Part shown: positions 17,418 through 30,120 of the stretch, one piece after another
How the letters are laid out: every line of letters begins with the position of its first letter
How positions within the stretch are numbered: position 1 is the stretch's first letter
Virus record (IMG/VR): IMGVR_UViG_3300045988_167796
Span: 132,032 to 171,721 of that record
Source of the DNA: a virus
Direction: 5' to 3' (one strand)
Length of the DNA stretch: 39,690 nucleotides
Notes under the pieces: model-generated
Seen by the model: only the letters and a program-made list of their open reading frames with translations
Databases searched by the model: none
Told to the model about the DNA's origin: nothing
Position numbers and translations under genes: made by a program

Positions 17418-20285
17418 TTATTCAGATGTTTGAAAAGCGTCACTTTTTTTATTACGATATTTTGATTGCCTTAATTTATGTAAATAATCCTTATGTATTT
17501 CCGAGCATCTATCACATCGTTTACTTCTCATATTTGTTGATTGAACATTAAAAACACATCCGCAATCTACGCATACCATTGATTTTTTTCCGTTTAATTT
17601 ATTTACTTCTTTTCCCCTACAAGATCTACATTTACCTCTATATAAAACCTCATCCGTTCTCTTTCCGCATTTTCTACATATATTTTTATAATCAACATTT
17701 TCACACAAATTATTGTATATTTGTTCTCCATATATGTACCATAATAGCTTCTTTTTCCTCGTAGATGGTTTTTTATATAAAAATGATACAAGCGAATTAA
17801 TTACTTTATCATCGTTTGGTTCTATTTTATTTAGATCAGATTTTACCTGCATACATACAGCATTTATATTGTTCTTATCCTTATTATCGTCTTCATCAAG
17901 TTTTATATTGTTACCATATTTCTTATTCCATCTGTCAAACACAGCGTTTACTTCATCATTATAATAGAAGTCATTTTTATCCTTTAAGAACAATTTATAA
18001 TCAACTTTATCAAGTCTTTTTATGTTTTTAAACTGTTTCTTATTATCTTTTATTTCGTTTACTATTTTATTAATAGTACTATCGTTTATAGGTTCAACCT
18101 GTTCTAACGATTTATCTTTTGCGTAATAAAAGAAATACGGGACCTTCTGATTACTATATCTTTTCAGAATCTGATCTACGTGTTGAGGTCTAGTAGGTTT
18201 AAATAACGTTTTTGCATAATCTATAGTAAAATTAGTTTCCATGCATAACCATCTTACTGCATTTAATGATTCCTGCGTAATGTTACCACTGTTCCATATC
18301 TTTGTAATATCGTTACTAATACCACCAATACGACCTCCAGTAAATGCTAATTTAAGACCTTTGAAGATGTTTTCACAGGTAATCATCTCTGCATTTGCCT
18401 TTTTCATCTCATAATACAAAGGATTAACACCTTGCATACATCTCTCAGCAATGTTAATAAGCTTTTCTTGTGCTAAAACAAGCAGCCTGTCTCCATCTAC
18501 ATCAAACTGTAATATTCTACTTATAGGATCATGAACACTTGTATATATAGCATCTGTTGTAAACCATTCATCTAATCTTGTGCACCTAAACTTCTTATTA
18601 CAAACATTTTTTCTAACCGCATGTTCAATATATAAATGAGGGGATCTCAGACAATCAAGTTTTTCTTTATTCTTATATAACCTACAAAATACTTCACCAT
18701 TTGCAAGAAGTCCTATTGGAGATTCTACTCCCATAAATAAACGCTCACAAAATGCATATAGATCAGGTACAACAAAAGTAAATTTGCCAGTAACGTCTAA
18801 CTTCGCACTTCTGTATTTTTTTATCATGCTATTTTTTAAATCCCTAAGATCTGCTTTGCTTGCCGGATCGTTTAATAGCTCTGGATATATTTTTAATGAT
18901 TTCTGGAACCAATCTTTTTTACTTTCGTCATCATCGTCTAAATCAACACCAAAAAAATCAAGAGCATTTTCCAAACTATCACTTATAGTTTCTATTTTCT
19001 TATTTGCAAATTTACACATATCTGAAATTTCTTTATCAGTTGCATCATATAATGTTTGAAGCATTTGATAGTTGATTTTTGCATTTGAAATAGAATCTTC
19101 TTCTATATTGCATATACCTGCTTCGCAATTATATTTCTTAAAATAATACTTATATTCATCCCAGCTGTCATAATACTTGTACATTTTTAACTGAGATTTA
19201 GTGAATATAACTTGAATATCATCATCAAAAATATCGTATTCTTTTCCCCATATATCCCGAATTTTTGACGAGCAGTTATATGTTTTTATAAACTTTTTAT
19301 AATCAAAACTTCCTAATAATCCTTTAATAAACGGCATACGCACCATGAAGTTCTTTTTACTTAACGATGGAAGAATCATACCGGATCCATCTGTATGTGT
19401 AATCGGTATATCCATGACTACATCAGGAGTTATTTCATAAGATTTATAATCAATATTATCAACCTTACAATTTACCATTGTCTCAAAATCATCTACTACA
19501 ATACTTCTATCTATATCAAATGGAACTCCAAGAACATCTTCCCATAAATCAGTAGCAGAGTTTGCAAGAGCAAGATAAGCCAGGAATTTGTTAATATTCA
19601 TTCCGCCTTTTTCATTTATTTTATCTACAGTAAGACCACACATAAGTTTTAATTTACAACTCTCATATTTTTCTTCCTCTACAAATACAGCTTTTTTTGT
19701 TCTTATTTGTCCTGCAGAAGAGGAGAAGTATACGTAATGCTTATTGTTATAATTAAATCCGTCTAAAATTAGATTTTCAGCTATATCATAGTAAAATATT
19801 TCAAGGACAAAAATACCGTATGTAAGCTCATTTGTTTTTATATCAAAGCTTCTGCTTAATGTGGATTCAAACATTGCAATAACATTTGAAATATTTATTT
19901 TTCTATCGCCGTCTTCTTGGTCAACATAAGAAAGATATCTTTCGTCCAAACACCTTATTATTTTATCTTTATGTGTTTTGTTATATTCAAGTATATTTTT
20001 CGAGTTATCAGAGATATATTTTTTCCATCTTTCTTCTTCTGATTTTATTTCTTTATCAAACCACAAAAAATATTCTTCATATTTACTTAATATACATCCA
20101 TCTTTTTTTTCACGTTTTAATTTTGAAACAGTTTTAGTAATGCTTTCTTTATAATGTAATTTCGTATCATATATTTTTTTGTGTATTTTTTTTAATCTTA
20201 TTAATCGTTTTCTTTCATTTTTTTCTTCCTTTGTTAAAAACGCGCTAGTGTCAACCTTGAATAAACTAATTTGTCTATCTAGCAT
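17418..20285 (-). CDS. large 955-aa protein with DxDGD motif (QFDVDGDRL) and C-terminal multi-Cys zinc cluster; candidate YonO-like single-subunit two-barrel RNA polymerase (alternative: primase-polymerase)
   Basis: Uninterrupted 955-codon ORF with SD; DxDGD is the catalytic signature of two-double-psi-beta-barrel RNAPs; function unverified. Confidence 0.3.
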   Translation of the reverse strand: MLDRQISLFKVDTSAFLTKEEKNERKRLIRLKKIHKKIYDTKLHYKESITKTVSKLKREKKDGCILSKYEEYFLWFDKEIKSEEERWKKYISDNSKNILEYNKTHKDKIIRCLDERYLSYVDQEDGDRKINISNVIAMFESTLSRSFDIKTNELTYGIFVLEIFYYDIAENLILDGFNYNNKHYVYFSSSAGQIRTKKAVFVEEEKYESCKLKLMCGLTVDKINEKGGMNINKFLAYLALANSATDLWEDVLGVPFDIDRSIVVDDFETMVNCKVDNIDYKSYEITPDVVMDIPITHTDGSGMILPSLSKKNFMVRMPFIKGLLGSFDYKKFIKTYNCSSKIRDIWGKEYDIFDDDIQVIFTKSQLKMYKYYDSWDEYKYYFKKYNCEAGICNIEEDSISNAKINYQMLQTLYDATDKEISDMCKFANKKIETISDSLENALDFFGVDLDDDDESKKDWFQKSLKIYPELLNDPASKADLRDLKNSMIKKYRSAKLDVTGKFTFVVPDLYAFCERLFMGVESPIGLLANGEVFCRLYKNKEKLDCLRSPHLYIEHAVRKNVCNKKFRCTRLDEWFTTDAIYTSVHDPISRILQFDVDGDRLLVLAQEKLINIAERCMQGVNPLYYEMKKANAEMITCENIFKGLKLAFTGGRIGGISNDITKIWNSGNITQESLNAVRWLCMETNFTIDYAKTLFKPTRPQHVDQILKRYSNQKVPYFFYYAKDKSLEQVEPINDSTINKIVNEIKDNKKQFKNIKRLDKVDYKLFLKDKNDFYYNDEVNAVFDRWNKKYGNNIKLDEDDNKDKNNINAVCMQVKSDLNKIEPNDDKVINSLVSFLYKKPSTRKKKLLWYIYGEQIYNNLCENVDYKNICRKCGKRTDEVLYRGKCRSCRGKEVNKLNGKKSMVCVDCGCVFNVQSTNMRSKRCDRCSEIHKDYLHKLRQSKYRNKKSDAFQTSE

Positions 20286-26377: not shown

Positions 26378-26400
26378 TTTTTTAATATTGCTCATTATAG
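26378..26400 (-). promoter_or_regulatory. copy of conserved motif CTATAATGAGCAATATTAAAAA upstream of zinc-ribbon gene
   Basis: Same 21-22 nt motif; ends 19 nt before ATG 26362; overlaps stop of HAD gene. Confidence 0.5.
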
Positions 26401-26970
26401 ATTATTATTTAATAAATATATTGCTTCTTTTACATTATCATCCTGTAATCCACCAGGGCGATTCCAGTAAGATGTATGGATCAAATTATTTATACCTAAT
26501 TTCCTATATGCAGTGTATCTGTAATCATCATCAAGAATTACATAATTTGAAATTTCACGATGTTGATCAAGATATACACGTATATCATATGGTCGGCCTT
26601 TTAAAGTTTCAGGCGTTTGATCATATATATGAAGGTTTTCTTCTGCAAGAGAGGAGAGAAGATATTTCCATTGTGGATGTTCTGGAATATCTGATAATGA
26701 TCTCCATGATGAACATAGAACTATTTTTGCACCTGTTTCTTCTATAATAGTGCGTAAACGTTTTGTTCGCACCGGATCTATCTCTGTATAAGATGTAGAA
26801 GTGTTTGGTTGTAGAGATGCCGGAATAATGTGATCCCCAGCACCGTATTCATGTGCAAAATAATAGTCTGAGTTCAAAACCCCATCTATATCTAGGAATA
26901 CACATTTTATTTTTTGCGTATTTTTGGTTTGGTCTGATATAAAGGGTGGTAAAGTCTGTAACGGTTCTAT
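26395..26970 (-). CDS. HAD-superfamily phosphatase/nucleotidase-like protein; N-terminus uncertain (no canonical start upstream of catalytic motif)
   Basis: Motif I VFLDIDGVL and motif II IVLCSSW; track start (TTG 26877) falls after motif I; only in-frame candidate is ATA 9 nt after GGAGG. Confidence 0.5.
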   Translation of the reverse strand: MEPLQTLPPFISDQTKNTQKIKCVFLDIDGVLNSDYYFAHEYGAGDHIIPASLQPNTSTSYTEIDPVRTKRLRTIIEETGAKIVLCSSWRSLSDIPEHPQWKYLLSSLAEENLHIYDQTPETLKGRPYDIRVYLDQHREISNYVILDDDYRYTAYRKLGINNLIHTSYWNRPGGLQDDNVKEAIYLLNNNL

Positions 26971-27087: not shown

Positions 27088-27229
27088 AAAGAATTATAGC
27101 AATGCTAATGGTATTTGTCAAGCAAAAATTACAAAAATTGTGGCGATAAGCAGTCTGAAATTGATTGACACTTATGTAAACTTCCGAATTAAATATCGAG
27201 AATGAATAATTGAAGAGTGTTGATATGGA

Positions 27230-27320
27230 AATAGAGGTTGGGATTATAAAAATCGATTAAGGATGAGGAGGACGATTAAAGATTGTTATAACGATTTAAG
27301 CGATTTAGGATTGTTATGGA
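27230..27320. repeat. cluster of short direct repeats (GATTGTTAT x2; CGATTAAR x3)
   Basis: Seen directly in the strand-switch intergenic region. Confidence 0.4.
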
Positions 27321-27415
27321 AGGAAGTTAATATAAATATGATCTATTTTTTCAAGTTAGTGTGTGTATAGAACGGCTTTGCAGAATCACGGAAAAACAGA
27401 ACACCCGTTTGGTTT

Positions 27416-27443
27416 TTGTTAGCCCCCACTAACGTCCTATAAT
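27416..27443 (+). promoter_or_regulatory. sigma70-like promoter TTGTTA-16nt-TATAAT facing the rightward gene arm
   Basis: Consensus-like hexamers with 16-nt spacer; upstream of GC-rich structured element. Confidence 0.4.
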
Positions 27444-27482
27444 ACATATTAACGTACGATTAGACATATCTAACCATAAAAT

Positions 27483-27538
27483 ACCACAATATATAGTGTC
27501 GATACAGCCATAAAACACAATTAAACCACAATATATAG
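27483..27538 (+). repeat. two 14-bp direct repeats ACCACAATATATAG (iteron/operator-like) 28 nt apart
   Basis: Exact 14-mer duplicated at 27483 and 27525, each preceded by CCATAAAA. Confidence 0.5.
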
Positions 27539-27599
27539 AATGAACTTTTTGTATCATTTAATCTCGTTTTTCAACTTTTCCATAGTCTGTATAGTATAC

Positions 27600-27960
27600 T
27601 GATTACAAGCTAAAGGAAAGACGTTCTATCGCTTCCTTTAGCTGGTGGGATTGGAAGCCCACATGCATGAACGGTGTCCCCTGTCAAAGGGACTAGGGCT
27701 TGCCCCCGAAATGTCCCTCTTTGGACGTCCGGCTTAGGCTTCCGGCGTCTGCATCCTTGACAACAAAGAATGAATATCTACCACGCCCTTGCGGCGTGTA
27801 TGTAATCCTTGCGATTACCTATATTTATTCGGAATATTGGATTTCGTGCGCAAAATAGCCCACACTAATTTGATTCTGTATTAATTGTTTTTTCGGTATA
27901 GCCGTATGATTCCGGCATGATTCGGTGTTATACGGGCGTACCGAAACGGTATGACTAATA
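27600..27960 (+). ncRNA. candidate structured RNA / highly structured leader (GC-rich hairpin-dense island), identity unknown
   Basis: Seven or more stable hairpins incl. a 10-bp stem at 27609-27642, two hairpins with identical CCTTGCG loops (27782-27797, 27807-27822), nested structure 27892-27946; no ORF; downstream of sigma70-like promoter. Confidence 0.25.
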
Positions 27961-27981
27961 TCATACAAGGGGGTTGTTATT

Positions 27982-28929
27982 ATGACAACAACAACAATTA
28001 ATTATATCACAATCAAAACAGGCAAAATGGTAGAAAAGGATGAAGTAAAGTCTTTCAAAGAGCTTAAATTCATTGTACCTAGAAATGTCGTTTCTGTCGA
28101 TTATTTTCAGCTTGCCGTTCAATACTGGACTTTTAATCTGTATGACATGCAATTACAGGGAGATATCACGAAAAAACAGTACGTTCTTGAAAACATGCCG
28201 GAAGAAAACGAAATACAATCGACGTTAAAAGAGATAGCCGACAAGGAACTGGACGAAATTAAAAAACGTCATGAATTGTTTTCCGCAGAATACAATGCAT
28301 TTTCTAAATGCTTGCCGGACGGAATCATGGATATCATTCAAAACGATATTTTTGCAAAGATGTTTTCTTGCGTTAAGAATGATATCAGCGGTATATCTGG
28401 ACTTAAAAAAGAATATGATAAAAAAGGCAAGGTTTCATTTCCTACTATTCCAATAGCCGGAATATATGACCGGTGGACAGAAAACATTGTAAAATATACC
28501 GATGCATTATCGGATACATTTCATACCGATAAACCTATGCCTAAGCCGGAACGCGAAAAAAGGTATGATAAAATCCGCGAAGTATGCAACTATTACATGC
28601 CAAAAGTCGAAATTGACGGACTGTATAATCACATCAATTTCAACAAAATGACACAAAAAAATATCCTTGCATACTATGATGCTTCTGGCAAACTAAGCAA
28701 TGGTAAAAACGGCGGTTCTGTCCATACAAGAGTAAAAGCAACAAAATTACTTTATAATCTTTTCCACCAGATGCTTATTTGCTTAGGATGCGAAGAACCA
28801 AAAGAAGTAAAAGAGTTGTCTGCCGATACCGCCAATAATATGTCTATGCTTGCAGTAAATGAACTTCTTAATGCATCAAAACAGGCAGAAAATGAAAAAC
28901 CCGAAAAAACAGATATAGAATCAAAATAA
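27982..28929 (+). CDS. hypothetical protein, 315 aa
   Basis: AAGGGGG SD; followed by strong terminator. Confidence 0.75.
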   Translation: MTTTTINYITIKTGKMVEKDEVKSFKELKFIVPRNVVSVDYFQLAVQYWTFNLYDMQLQGDITKKQYVLENMPEENEIQSTLKEIADKELDEIKKRHELFSAEYNAFSKCLPDGIMDIIQNDIFAKMFSCVKNDISGISGLKKEYDKKGKVSFPTIPIAGIYDRWTENIVKYTDALSDTFHTDKPMPKPEREKRYDKIREVCNYYMPKVEIDGLYNHINFNKMTQKNILAYYDASGKLSNGKNGGSVHTRVKATKLLYNLFHQMLICLGCEEPKEVKELSADTANNMSMLAVNELLNASKQAENEKPEKTDIESK

Positions 28930-29006: not shown

Positions 29007-29588
29007 ATGCATAACGAAATGTATAAACCTTTTAAAATTGCCGCTGATTTTACTACGCATTATTTTAATACATGCGTTCCTAAAAATGCATCATATGGAC
29101 GTTTAACAAAAAATATCTATATTTTTATAGATAATTATTCTCAGTTTCGTCCTAATATGCAAGGAATTGATTCGATAACAATAAACGTATTAGACGCAAG
29201 AAAAGACAGTAATTTCCATAAATGTATCATAAAAAAATACATTAGAAATAGAAAAACTAATGAAATGGTACAAAATCCTACGTTTGAATTTTGCTATAAT
29301 TTTGTAGCAAAAAACAAATTATGGAATACAAAATGCGAAAATATTTTGAGATATAACCGTTCTGGTGCTCTGCCGTCTTACTATGTAAAACAGCGTGAAC
29401 CCAAATATAGAGCATATGGAGATTATTCCAAAAGCGTCGGTGTTAACGACGATATTAGATATAAAGAAATCACAGAAAATGCTCATTATGCATATGAACG
29501 TGCATCTATGTCTGCTGAAGGGACTATAGCGGCACAACGATTCGATATTGGTAATCGTTTAAAAAATGGTGTAAGATACGATGATTAA
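29007..29588 (+). CDS. hypothetical protein, 193 aa
   Basis: GGGGGA SD; followed by terminator. Confidence 0.7.
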   Translation: MHNEMYKPFKIAADFTTHYFNTCVPKNASYGRLTKNIYIFIDNYSQFRPNMQGIDSITINVLDARKDSNFHKCIIKKYIRNRKTNEMVQNPTFEFCYNFVAKNKLWNTKCENILRYNRSGALPSYYVKQREPKYRAYGDYSKSVGVNDDIRYKEITENAHYAYERASMSAEGTIAAQRFDIGNRLKNGVRYDD

Positions 29589-29592
29589 ATAT

Positions 29593-29628
29593 AAAAAAAA
29601 CATCTACAAAATAGTAGATGTTTTTTTT
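29593..29628 (+). terminator. rho-independent terminator (A-run/hairpin/T-run, potentially bidirectional)
   Basis: AAAAAAAACATCTAC-aaaata-GTAGATGTTTTTTTT. Confidence 0.75.
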
Positions 29629-29757
29629 ATGCAATTTTTATATATTTCCCCTTTATAACTATTAAACAACCATTTAATTTTTTTTATACAAAGAAATGAG
29701 GTGATATACATGCGGACTAAATAAAACAAACATAAGTCCGAGAAAAGAGGATTTATT

Positions 29758-29931: not shown

Positions 29932-30120
29932 TTCAGAGTGGTCAAGCCCAACAACATGGGCTTGACTAATGAACTATGCTAGCAAATTTATGCTATACGT
30001 GCGCTTTTTATACGTATGTATGCATATGCATAACGGTCACAAGTCCGTATTTTGTTCATTTTTACGATTCACCCAATAATCAAACCAATTCAATCAAATA
30101 TAAACACAAGGAGAACCACC

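Follow-up and report, generated by a model that had tools for sequence, protein, structure and literature searches.

The divergent gap in a 39,690-nt stretch of phage DNA (positions 132,032–171,721 of IMG/VR record IMGVR_UViG_3300045988_167796; hereafter, the window) contains a structured element located immediately upstream of the first rightward gene, gene A. The element is best read as a structured 5′ leader of approximately 380 nt that heads a short early unit of transcription, which comprises the leader, gene A, the second rightward gene (gene B), and a terminator. We are highly confident that it is an RNA structure selected on the plus strand, neither a product of chance nor a DNA signal, and it probably acts in cis on genes A and B. 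A mechanism that combines Nus-factor loading at a boxA-like motif with a translation switch is proposed more tentatively. The original prediction, made from the letters of the window, had described a promoter-driven, GC-rich structured element at this strand switch and had offered three explanations: a long cis-regulatory leader or riboswitch-like element, a stable non-coding RNA or ribozyme, and DNA-level structure of a replication origin or packaging (pac) site. The first of these is favored by the plus-strand covariation, the fusion of the element to the Shine-Dalgarno (SD) sequence and start codon, and the mutually exclusive helices by the ribosome-binding site.

Conservation and covariation of the leader RNA

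Minus-strand open reading frames (ORFs) of the window stop at 26877 and plus-strand ORFs begin at 27982, leaving a divergent gap of 1.1 kb. The leader and the genes of its unit comprise the following features, in window coordinates:

27608–27705, plus strand: 5′ peripheral domain of four hairpins, the GC-rich part
27608–27643, plus strand: hairpin H1, with an 11-bp stem
27645–27662, plus strand: hairpin H2 (GTGGG/CCCAC)
27676–27693, plus strand: hairpin H3 (GTCCC/GGGAC)
27696–27705, plus strand: hairpin H4
27710–27838, plus strand: core domain, closed by helix P1h (27710–27717 with 27831–27838)
27724–27749, plus strand: hairpin P2h inside the core, containing CCGG/CCGG
27753–27767, plus strand: single-stranded boxA-like motif AUCCUUGACAACAAA (given also as AUCCUUGACAAC), with the core CCUUGAMAAC
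27768–27777 with 27821–27830, plus strand: helix P3, enclosing the twin hairpins
27782–27798 and 27802–27818, plus strand: twin hairpins P3a and P3b, with 6-bp stems and CUUGC pentaloops
27846–27863, plus strand: hairpin P4 (GUG...CAC)
27892–27945, plus strand: long hairpin P5
27937–27953, plus strand: alternative hairpin P5′ (CGUACCG-AAA-CGGUAUG), reusing the 3′ strand of P5, with the conserved tail ACUAWW after it
27949–27966, plus strand: hairpin P6 (GTATGA/TCATAC)
27967–27973, plus strand: SD sequence AAGGGGG
27973–27989, plus strand: start-codon hairpin (GUUGUUA/UGACAAC), pairing the SD–AUG spacer with codons 2–4
27982–28929, plus strand: gene A, 315 amino acids, first rightward gene, with its AUG at 27982
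29007–29588, plus strand: gene B, 193 amino acids, second rightward gene
29590–29631, plus strand: intrinsic-terminator-like hairpin (A-run, 18-bp stem, U-run) right after gene B

Neither a distant-mode DNA search of GenBank phages nor exact and degenerate motif scans of IMG/VR retrieved relatives of the element; 14 hits of the degenerate scan (genome contigs and JGI metagenomes) were discarded as chance matches, having no blastn similarity and no hairpins. Relatives were found via protein homologues of genes A and B in metagenomes, followed by contig look-ups, and they represent nine lineages: the window; L002; L003 with L026; L005; L024 with seven IMG/VR variants; L036; L038; L039; and L040 with L041. 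In the loci with gene A and B homologues, the element lay at the strand switch before gene A each time, where the contig reaches that far. On contigs long enough, gene A was the first gene beside the strand switch, preceded by a non-coding gap of approximately 600–1200 nt; the short L038 contig does not reach far enough to reveal the left side. Gene B came after gene A on every contig that continues.

YonO of Bacillus phage SPbeta is a two-barrel, single-subunit RNA polymerase, and the window encodes a 955-amino acid homologue (17418–20285, minus strand) with 67% identity to that of an IMG/VR phage, L021; the window, part of a 171.7-kb metagenomic contig, thus belongs to an SPbeta-like phage of approximately 172 kb. 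Its divergent gap is syntenic with the yonP–yonR gap beside yonO on the SPbeta map. YonO-bearing phages that lack gene A (L021, L022, and SPbeta) also lacked the element, and the SPbeta gap gave no significant local alignment to the leader and contained no twin hairpins.

The region 27608–27989 is the most GC-rich non-coding island of the window, which has a GC content of 33%. Over 27600–27799 the content was 52.5%, and the 150-nt peak of 56.7% (at 27647) was the highest among all 17 non-coding gaps; the corresponding value was 54% for tRNA clusters, and the window carries six tRNAs. The z-scores of the minimum free energy (MFE) were −3.6 and −4.0 for the plus and minus strands, respectively, and none of 100 dinucleotide shuffles folded as well. 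The original prediction of a segment with more than 50% GC, packed with hairpins and running up to the SD of the gene at 27982, was borne out, and every hairpin that it listed was present. Two needed adjustment: the stem of H1 is 11 bp long instead of 10 bp at 27609–27642, and the twin stem-loops do have 6-bp stems and an identical loop, but the second had been placed approximately 5 nt off, at 27807–27822. Their shared heptamer, CCTTGCG, corresponds to the CUUGC pentaloop plus the closing C-G pair. Across the whole window, a C-W-U-G-Y pentaloop on a stem of at least 5 bp occurred only at P3a and P3b (plus strand), in agreement with the claim that nothing similar occurs elsewhere in the window; the sole other boxA-like match was not conserved.

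Because MAFFT could not bring the deep lineages into register, each lineage was folded separately. A 92-pair model derived from the window sequence was scored on four sequences, in which 84.8% of the cells were paired versus 36–43% with the partners slid; 24 pairs changed on both sides, compared with 4–7 in the slid controls and 0/500 shuffles. RNAalifold independently gave much the same structure, and the separate folds agreed on the architecture, of the core in five lineages and of the 3′ region in all nine. In L002 and L003, whose sequences were not used to define the model, G-U and A-C combinations occurred at a ratio of 20:5. This excess of G-U over A-C indicates selection on plus-strand RNA, not on duplex or minus-strand DNA, and for the structured segment it speaks against the DNA-level option of the original prediction.

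Individual helices were consistent with this result. Within lineage A, compensatory changes converted an A-U pair of H1 to C-G and GTCCC/GGGAC of H3 to GTACC/GGTAC. Helix P1h was 90.6% paired over the four sequences, with CC/GG replaced by GG/UC in L005, and independent MFE folds of the window, L002, L003, L005, and L024 gave the same core architecture. The P3 stem differed wholly in sequence in L005, L024, and L036 and retained its pairing. The twin loops followed the pattern C-N-N-G-Y in lineage A, L005, L024, and P3b of L036, and their 20-nt spacing was exact in four loci. A kissing interaction of these loops with CAAG was also considered and dropped, since the loops become CCAG in L024 and no CUGG partner was found on reading its leader.

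Toward the 3′ end, P4 was found in all lineages with varied stems (GUGCGC/GCCCAC, GUGUAC/GUACAC, GUGAG/CUCAC, and GUAGU/ACUAC), and P5 was predicted in all nine. The alternative P5′ formed a perfect helix of 6–8 bp in 9/9 lineages, even though the strand that it shares with P5 has seven different sequences, and in every lineage both partners were complementary to that strand. For P5′, 93% of the cells were paired and four of the five pairs changed on both sides, versus 0–1 in slid controls. A hairpin in the start region was predicted in 8/9 lineages (weakly in L005 and L024); in at least five, the SD–AUG spacer pairs with codons 2–4 with covariation, as in GUAGUUG/CAACUAC (L038) and GUAUUUG/CAAAUAC (L039).

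The eight L024-type variants (95–96% identical) allowed conservation to be compared along the leader at short distances. Its 3′ half had 0–3 variable sites per 100 nt, with none in the P5 region, versus mostly about 2–17 in the neighbouring genes. The 5′ hairpin domain had 17–29 variable sites per 100 nt, its stems being kept by compensatory substitutions and paired insertions, and L036, L039, and L040 have only one or two hairpins in this domain.

A terminator scan between the leader and gene A found none, and the strong terminator-like hairpin after gene B had equivalents with U-tracts in L002, L003, and L005 (none was obvious in L024). The absence of a terminator before gene A and the presence of one after gene B define the order leader, gene A, gene B, and terminator. 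Since the ribosome-binding site lies within the most conserved part of the leader and no locus has the element without gene A, action in cis on genes A and B is probable. At the gathering threshold, Rfam 15, whose families include riboswitches, ribozymes, phi29 pRNA, ROOL/GOLLD, T-box, and EAR, gave no leader match, either in the window or among ten related loci; relaxing the search of 27200–28100 to E ≤ 10 yielded only four chance-level matches to eukaryotic families and no ribozyme.

A boxA-like motif and a candidate translation switch

The core of the boxA-like motif, CCUUGAMAAC, was present in eight of the nine lineages, and the motif lies 223–247 nt upstream of the AUG in all of them. It is unpaired in the consensus structure, with promoter-like −10 elements upstream. 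The 16S–23S spacer of a Peribacillus plasmid rRNA operon contains UGUUCUUGAAAACUAG just past a hairpin, and its core matches that of the leader motif; we take such spacer boxes to be the Firmicute form of boxA. A second rRNA operon, from a Monoglobus record, had no clear spacer boxA. In mycoplasmas, the 16S–23S spacer sequence GTTCTTTGAAAACTGAAT is so well conserved that it can be used as a PCR primer for the whole genus (PMC4312986), and in the Aquifex aeolicus BoxA, GGCUCCUUGGCA, the key contacts of NusB/NusE are G2, C5, C/U6, and U8 (PMC3177189). The leader motif resembles both of these sequences as well. The motifs of L024, L039, L040, L036, and L005 have G2, C5, Y6, U7, U8, G9, and A10 in register (UGUACCUUGAAAAC and similar), with the exact reading UGUACCUUGAAAAC in L024 and L039.

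TTGACA within the motif was discarded as a −35 box, given that no −10 element lies at 16–18 bp and other lineages have TTGAAA. Base pairing between the motif and the start region would work in lineage A and L005, fails in L024, and is left as speculation. The only other match in the window (28185, one mismatch) lies inside gene A at 28183–28194 on the plus strand, where GTTCTTGAAAAC is identical to the Peribacillus box; it is probably a chance match, as it is not conserved in other lineages.

In the proposed mechanism, the host RNA polymerase would start at a sigma-A-type promoter directly upstream of the leader, under lineage-specific palindromic operators. The single-stranded boxA-like motif, flanked by hairpins, would recruit host NusB/NusE-type factors to the elongating polymerase, which would shield the long untranslated leader from premature termination and might also let the polymerase pass the terminator behind gene B and reach downstream early genes. 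P5 and P5′ would then compete for one strand, so that the stretch comprising P6, the SD, and the start-codon hairpin is open or closed and translation of gene A is gated; a ligand, the kinetics of folding, or a protein that binds the twin hairpins could be the trigger. We put forward this combination tentatively, as a plausible account that falls a little short of probable. Nus-factor loading, the part suggested by sequence resemblance, may occur.

Several observations weigh against this mechanism. In the window lineage (GCAUCCUUGACAAC), C5 through A12 are kept and the critical G2 is one position off, and L038 has a one-mismatch variant of the core, CAUUGAAAAU, within the reading CAUUGAAAA. 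The boxA consensus itself was composed from one rRNA-operon spacer (L037) and the mycoplasma spacer, and it may not be that of the host. The twin-loop sequence is not universal, with L039 and the P3a hairpin of L036 deviating. No candidate partner protein was evident: Pfam and PHROG searches assigned genes A and B to no family, an initiator family included, their N-termini, read directly, were not arginine-rich, and neither product was recognisable as an N-like or other RNA-binding protein. The AlphaFold models of genes A and B were poor and unfit for fold searches (predicted local distance difference test scores of 53 and 48, respectively). The transcript ends are predicted from promoter-like hexamers, and a transcript from the nearer promoter-like element, P2, would start at approximately 27602. 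Lastly, blocking P5 in silico barely altered the computed accessibility of the SD, a result that fits either direction of the switch.

One alternative is a purely translational riboregulator, either riboswitch-like or protein-dependent and maybe autoregulated by gene A or B, in which the central core would be the sensor, P5/P5′ the expression platform, and the likeness to boxA a coincidence with no role for Nus factors. We consider it somewhat unlikely, albeit the strongest of the alternatives. The mutually exclusive helices beside the SD in all lineages, the covarying start-codon hairpin, and the strict linkage of the element to gene A are all expected of such a regulator, and the inner loops, which are alike within a lineage and differ between lineages (CWUGY versus CCAGY), would fit a co-evolving dimeric protein partner. 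However, no known aptamer matches, the modelled accessibility of the SD is similar in both states, and an invariant single-stranded motif that matches a known protein-binding RNA box is left unexplained.

The element might also be a stable non-coding RNA that acts in trans, such as an anti-defence decoy or scaffold cut from the 5′ end of the mRNA, for which the position is merely convenient for expression. Its large size, GC richness, and multiple hairpins would suit this role, as would the arms-race-like rapid evolution of the 5′ hairpin domain, the twister ribozyme located two genes further on, and the neighbouring RNA-repair genes. This alternative is nevertheless improbable: there is no terminator or ribozyme between the element and the SD, with no Rfam match above chance level even at E ≤ 10, and the most conserved 3′ portion includes the SD and start codon, as expected of control in cis.

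Upstream control region and neighbouring genes

The upstream part of the gap contains the following promoter-like elements and repeats:

27416–27443, plus strand: promoter-like element P1 (TTGTTA-16-TATAAT), overlapping a conserved R-CCCCC box at 27422–27427
27568–27595, plus strand: promoter-like element P2 (TTTTCA-16-TATAGT), with the −10 TATAGT at 27590–27595, directly before H1
27483–27496 and 27525–27538, no strand assigned: two exact 14-bp repeats ACCACAATATATAG, near-palindromes CACAATATATAGTG

The element had been described as driven by P1, which is only partly supported. The hexamers and spacing of P1 are present, and lineage A and L005 retain its −10, but L003 and L026 carry a 10-bp insertion that disrupts the spacing. 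The −10 of P2 is better conserved: a −10 (TATAGT, TATAAT, TGCTATAGT, or TGCTATACT) directly precedes the first leader hairpin in other lineages.

The two exact 14-bp repeats, which had been interpreted as iterons, probably represent operators for lineage-specific repressors instead, since they are near-palindromic, change orientation, and are replaced in L024. The pair is inverted in L003 and L026, with the copies facing each other, unrelated palindromes (ATGCA...TGCAT) occupy the site in L024, and no further copy of ACCACAATATATAG was found in the window at up to two mismatches. An iteron-type origin would have several direct repeats of fixed orientation next to an AT-rich unwinding region, together with an initiator gene; the window has only this pair, whose orientation varies, and no initiator family was found for gene A or B.

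Farther upstream, a tract of approximately 150 nt (27190–27345) is nearly free of C on the plus strand, with a GC skew of up to +0.62, and holds CGATTAAGG, CGATTAAAG, and CGATTTAGG as repeated units. At the corresponding position, L002, L003, L005, L024, L036, L039, L040, and the SPbeta yonP–yonR gap have a similar tract that is poor in C and rich in G/A. The tract is possibly a recognition region of the terminase; a terminase-like gene lies further left in the window. It is followed by a conserved block at 27350–27427, TTCAAGTTAGTGTG...AACGGCTT...GTTAGCCCCC, and an RCCCCC box after a TTAAAAGT-like sequence was observed in 9/9 lineages, the syntenic SPbeta gap having AATATACCCCCATATA. Elsewhere ACCCCC is rare, with 0–4 occurrences per strand in the loci checked (18–40 kb). 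The box may act as a promoter element or mark either a pac cut site or the end of a small RNA.

These features bear on the last alternative, a DNA-level pac site or replication origin in which the hairpins and the pair of repeats would function; we regard it as very improbable. In its favor, the SPbeta genome opening point lies in the syntenic yonP–yonR gap (bioRxiv 10.1101/2021.11.22.469490), and the gaps of all lineages, like that of SPbeta, have the C-poor repeat tract and RCCCCC box. Against it, these SPbeta-like features lie at 27190–27427, upstream of the structured RNA, whose stems tolerate G-U and not A-C; the repeats are only two, palindromic, reoriented in L003 and L026, and replaced in other lineages; and comparison with the SPbeta gap showed no significant similarity in sequence.

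On the other side of the gap, a sigma-70-type promoter that matches the consensus perfectly and has an extended −10 (TTGACA-17-TGcTATAAT; 27093–27121, minus strand) faces the leftward operon and is conserved in L002, L003, and L024. The first leftward gene (26395–26877, minus strand) is of an RNA-repair type, with a HAD_SAK_2 domain in the window, L002, L003, and L026, and that of L024 (2138–2974, minus strand) encodes a Thg1-like tRNA-His guanylyltransferase. A Bro-N anti-repressor-like gene and a YAcAr gene adjoin the first leftward gene.

Downstream of the leader unit, a small hairpin (CGGACU...AGUCCG; 29710–29757, plus strand) abuts the SD of a gene of 57 amino acids; L002 and L003 retain this hairpin, and in L024 it is altered to GGACU...AGUCC. 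Right after this gene, two genes past the leader unit, lies a Type-P5 twister self-cleaving ribozyme (29932–30048, plus strand). The window copy has a large insertion and scored below the Rfam gathering threshold of 37.6 bits (28.8 bits, E = 8e-4), and those of L002 (4049–4134) and L003 (5957–6041) scored above it, with 38.1 and 38.5 bits, respectively.

Relation to known regulatory systems

The leader resembles the boxA sites of rRNA operons, suhB, and CRISPR leaders in its single-stranded box, which is near the host-type core C-Y-U-U-G-A-A-A-A-C, and in being an untranslated leader with adjoining hairpins and a strong promoter upstream. It differs in being a larger folded RNA that is phage-encoded and followed by a translated gene, with the G out of register in the window lineage. 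The order of promoter, boxA-like motif, pentaloop hairpin(s), early gene(s), and terminator is shared with the nut system of phage lambda and recalls PL-nutL-N-tL1; the loop sequence also varies between phage lineages, as does that of boxB. Twin C-N-N-G-Y hairpins follow the box at 15 and 35 nt in the window, L002, L003, L026, L005, and L024, one of the two hairpins conforms in L036, and neither clearly does in L039. In contrast to lambda, where a single hairpin lies 8 nt past the box, two helix-enclosed hairpins are located approximately 15–35 nt past it, the loops are C-N-N-G-Y rather than GNRA-like, there is no arginine-rich N-like protein, and the host is a Firmicute.

As in the platforms of riboswitches and attenuators, a strand shared by mutually exclusive helices lies right before the SD and is conserved by covariation, although no known aptamer matches and the platform contains no terminator. 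In SPbeta, the region upstream of yonK has been described as an "unannotated non-coding RNA" downstream of the YonO start site (PMC5467207). That late-operon leader is likewise a long structured non-coding stretch heading an operon in a YonO-encoding phage, but it is sited after yonN, belongs to a late operon transcribed by YonO, and showed no sequence or motif similarity to the window leader. The SPbeta yonN–yonK gap (1.68 kb, non-coding) also contains a DUF3800-VIII motif (RF03075, 47.5 bits; L020 6458–6523, minus strand).

As a family, the leader is a new candidate, while its kind is known, namely structured cis-regulatory leaders with antitermination-type and switch-type modules. It is unlikely, though worth considering, that it represents an undescribed class of leader RNA in which a host-type boxA, twin hairpins that co-evolve with the gene A or B protein, and a bistable ribosome-binding-site switch are combined. 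If true, this would make it a hub of nut-like antitermination and translation control in SPbeta-like phages of Firmicutes; to our knowledge, no such nut-like hub has an example among Gram-positive phages. Early-gene control in SPbeta-like phages is poorly known, and the leader offers a testable handle on it in these large phages of the gut. Should the boxA reading prove right, the leader would represent the capture of Nus factors by a Firmicute phage, and in any case the catalogue of structured RNAs gains a candidate with good support.

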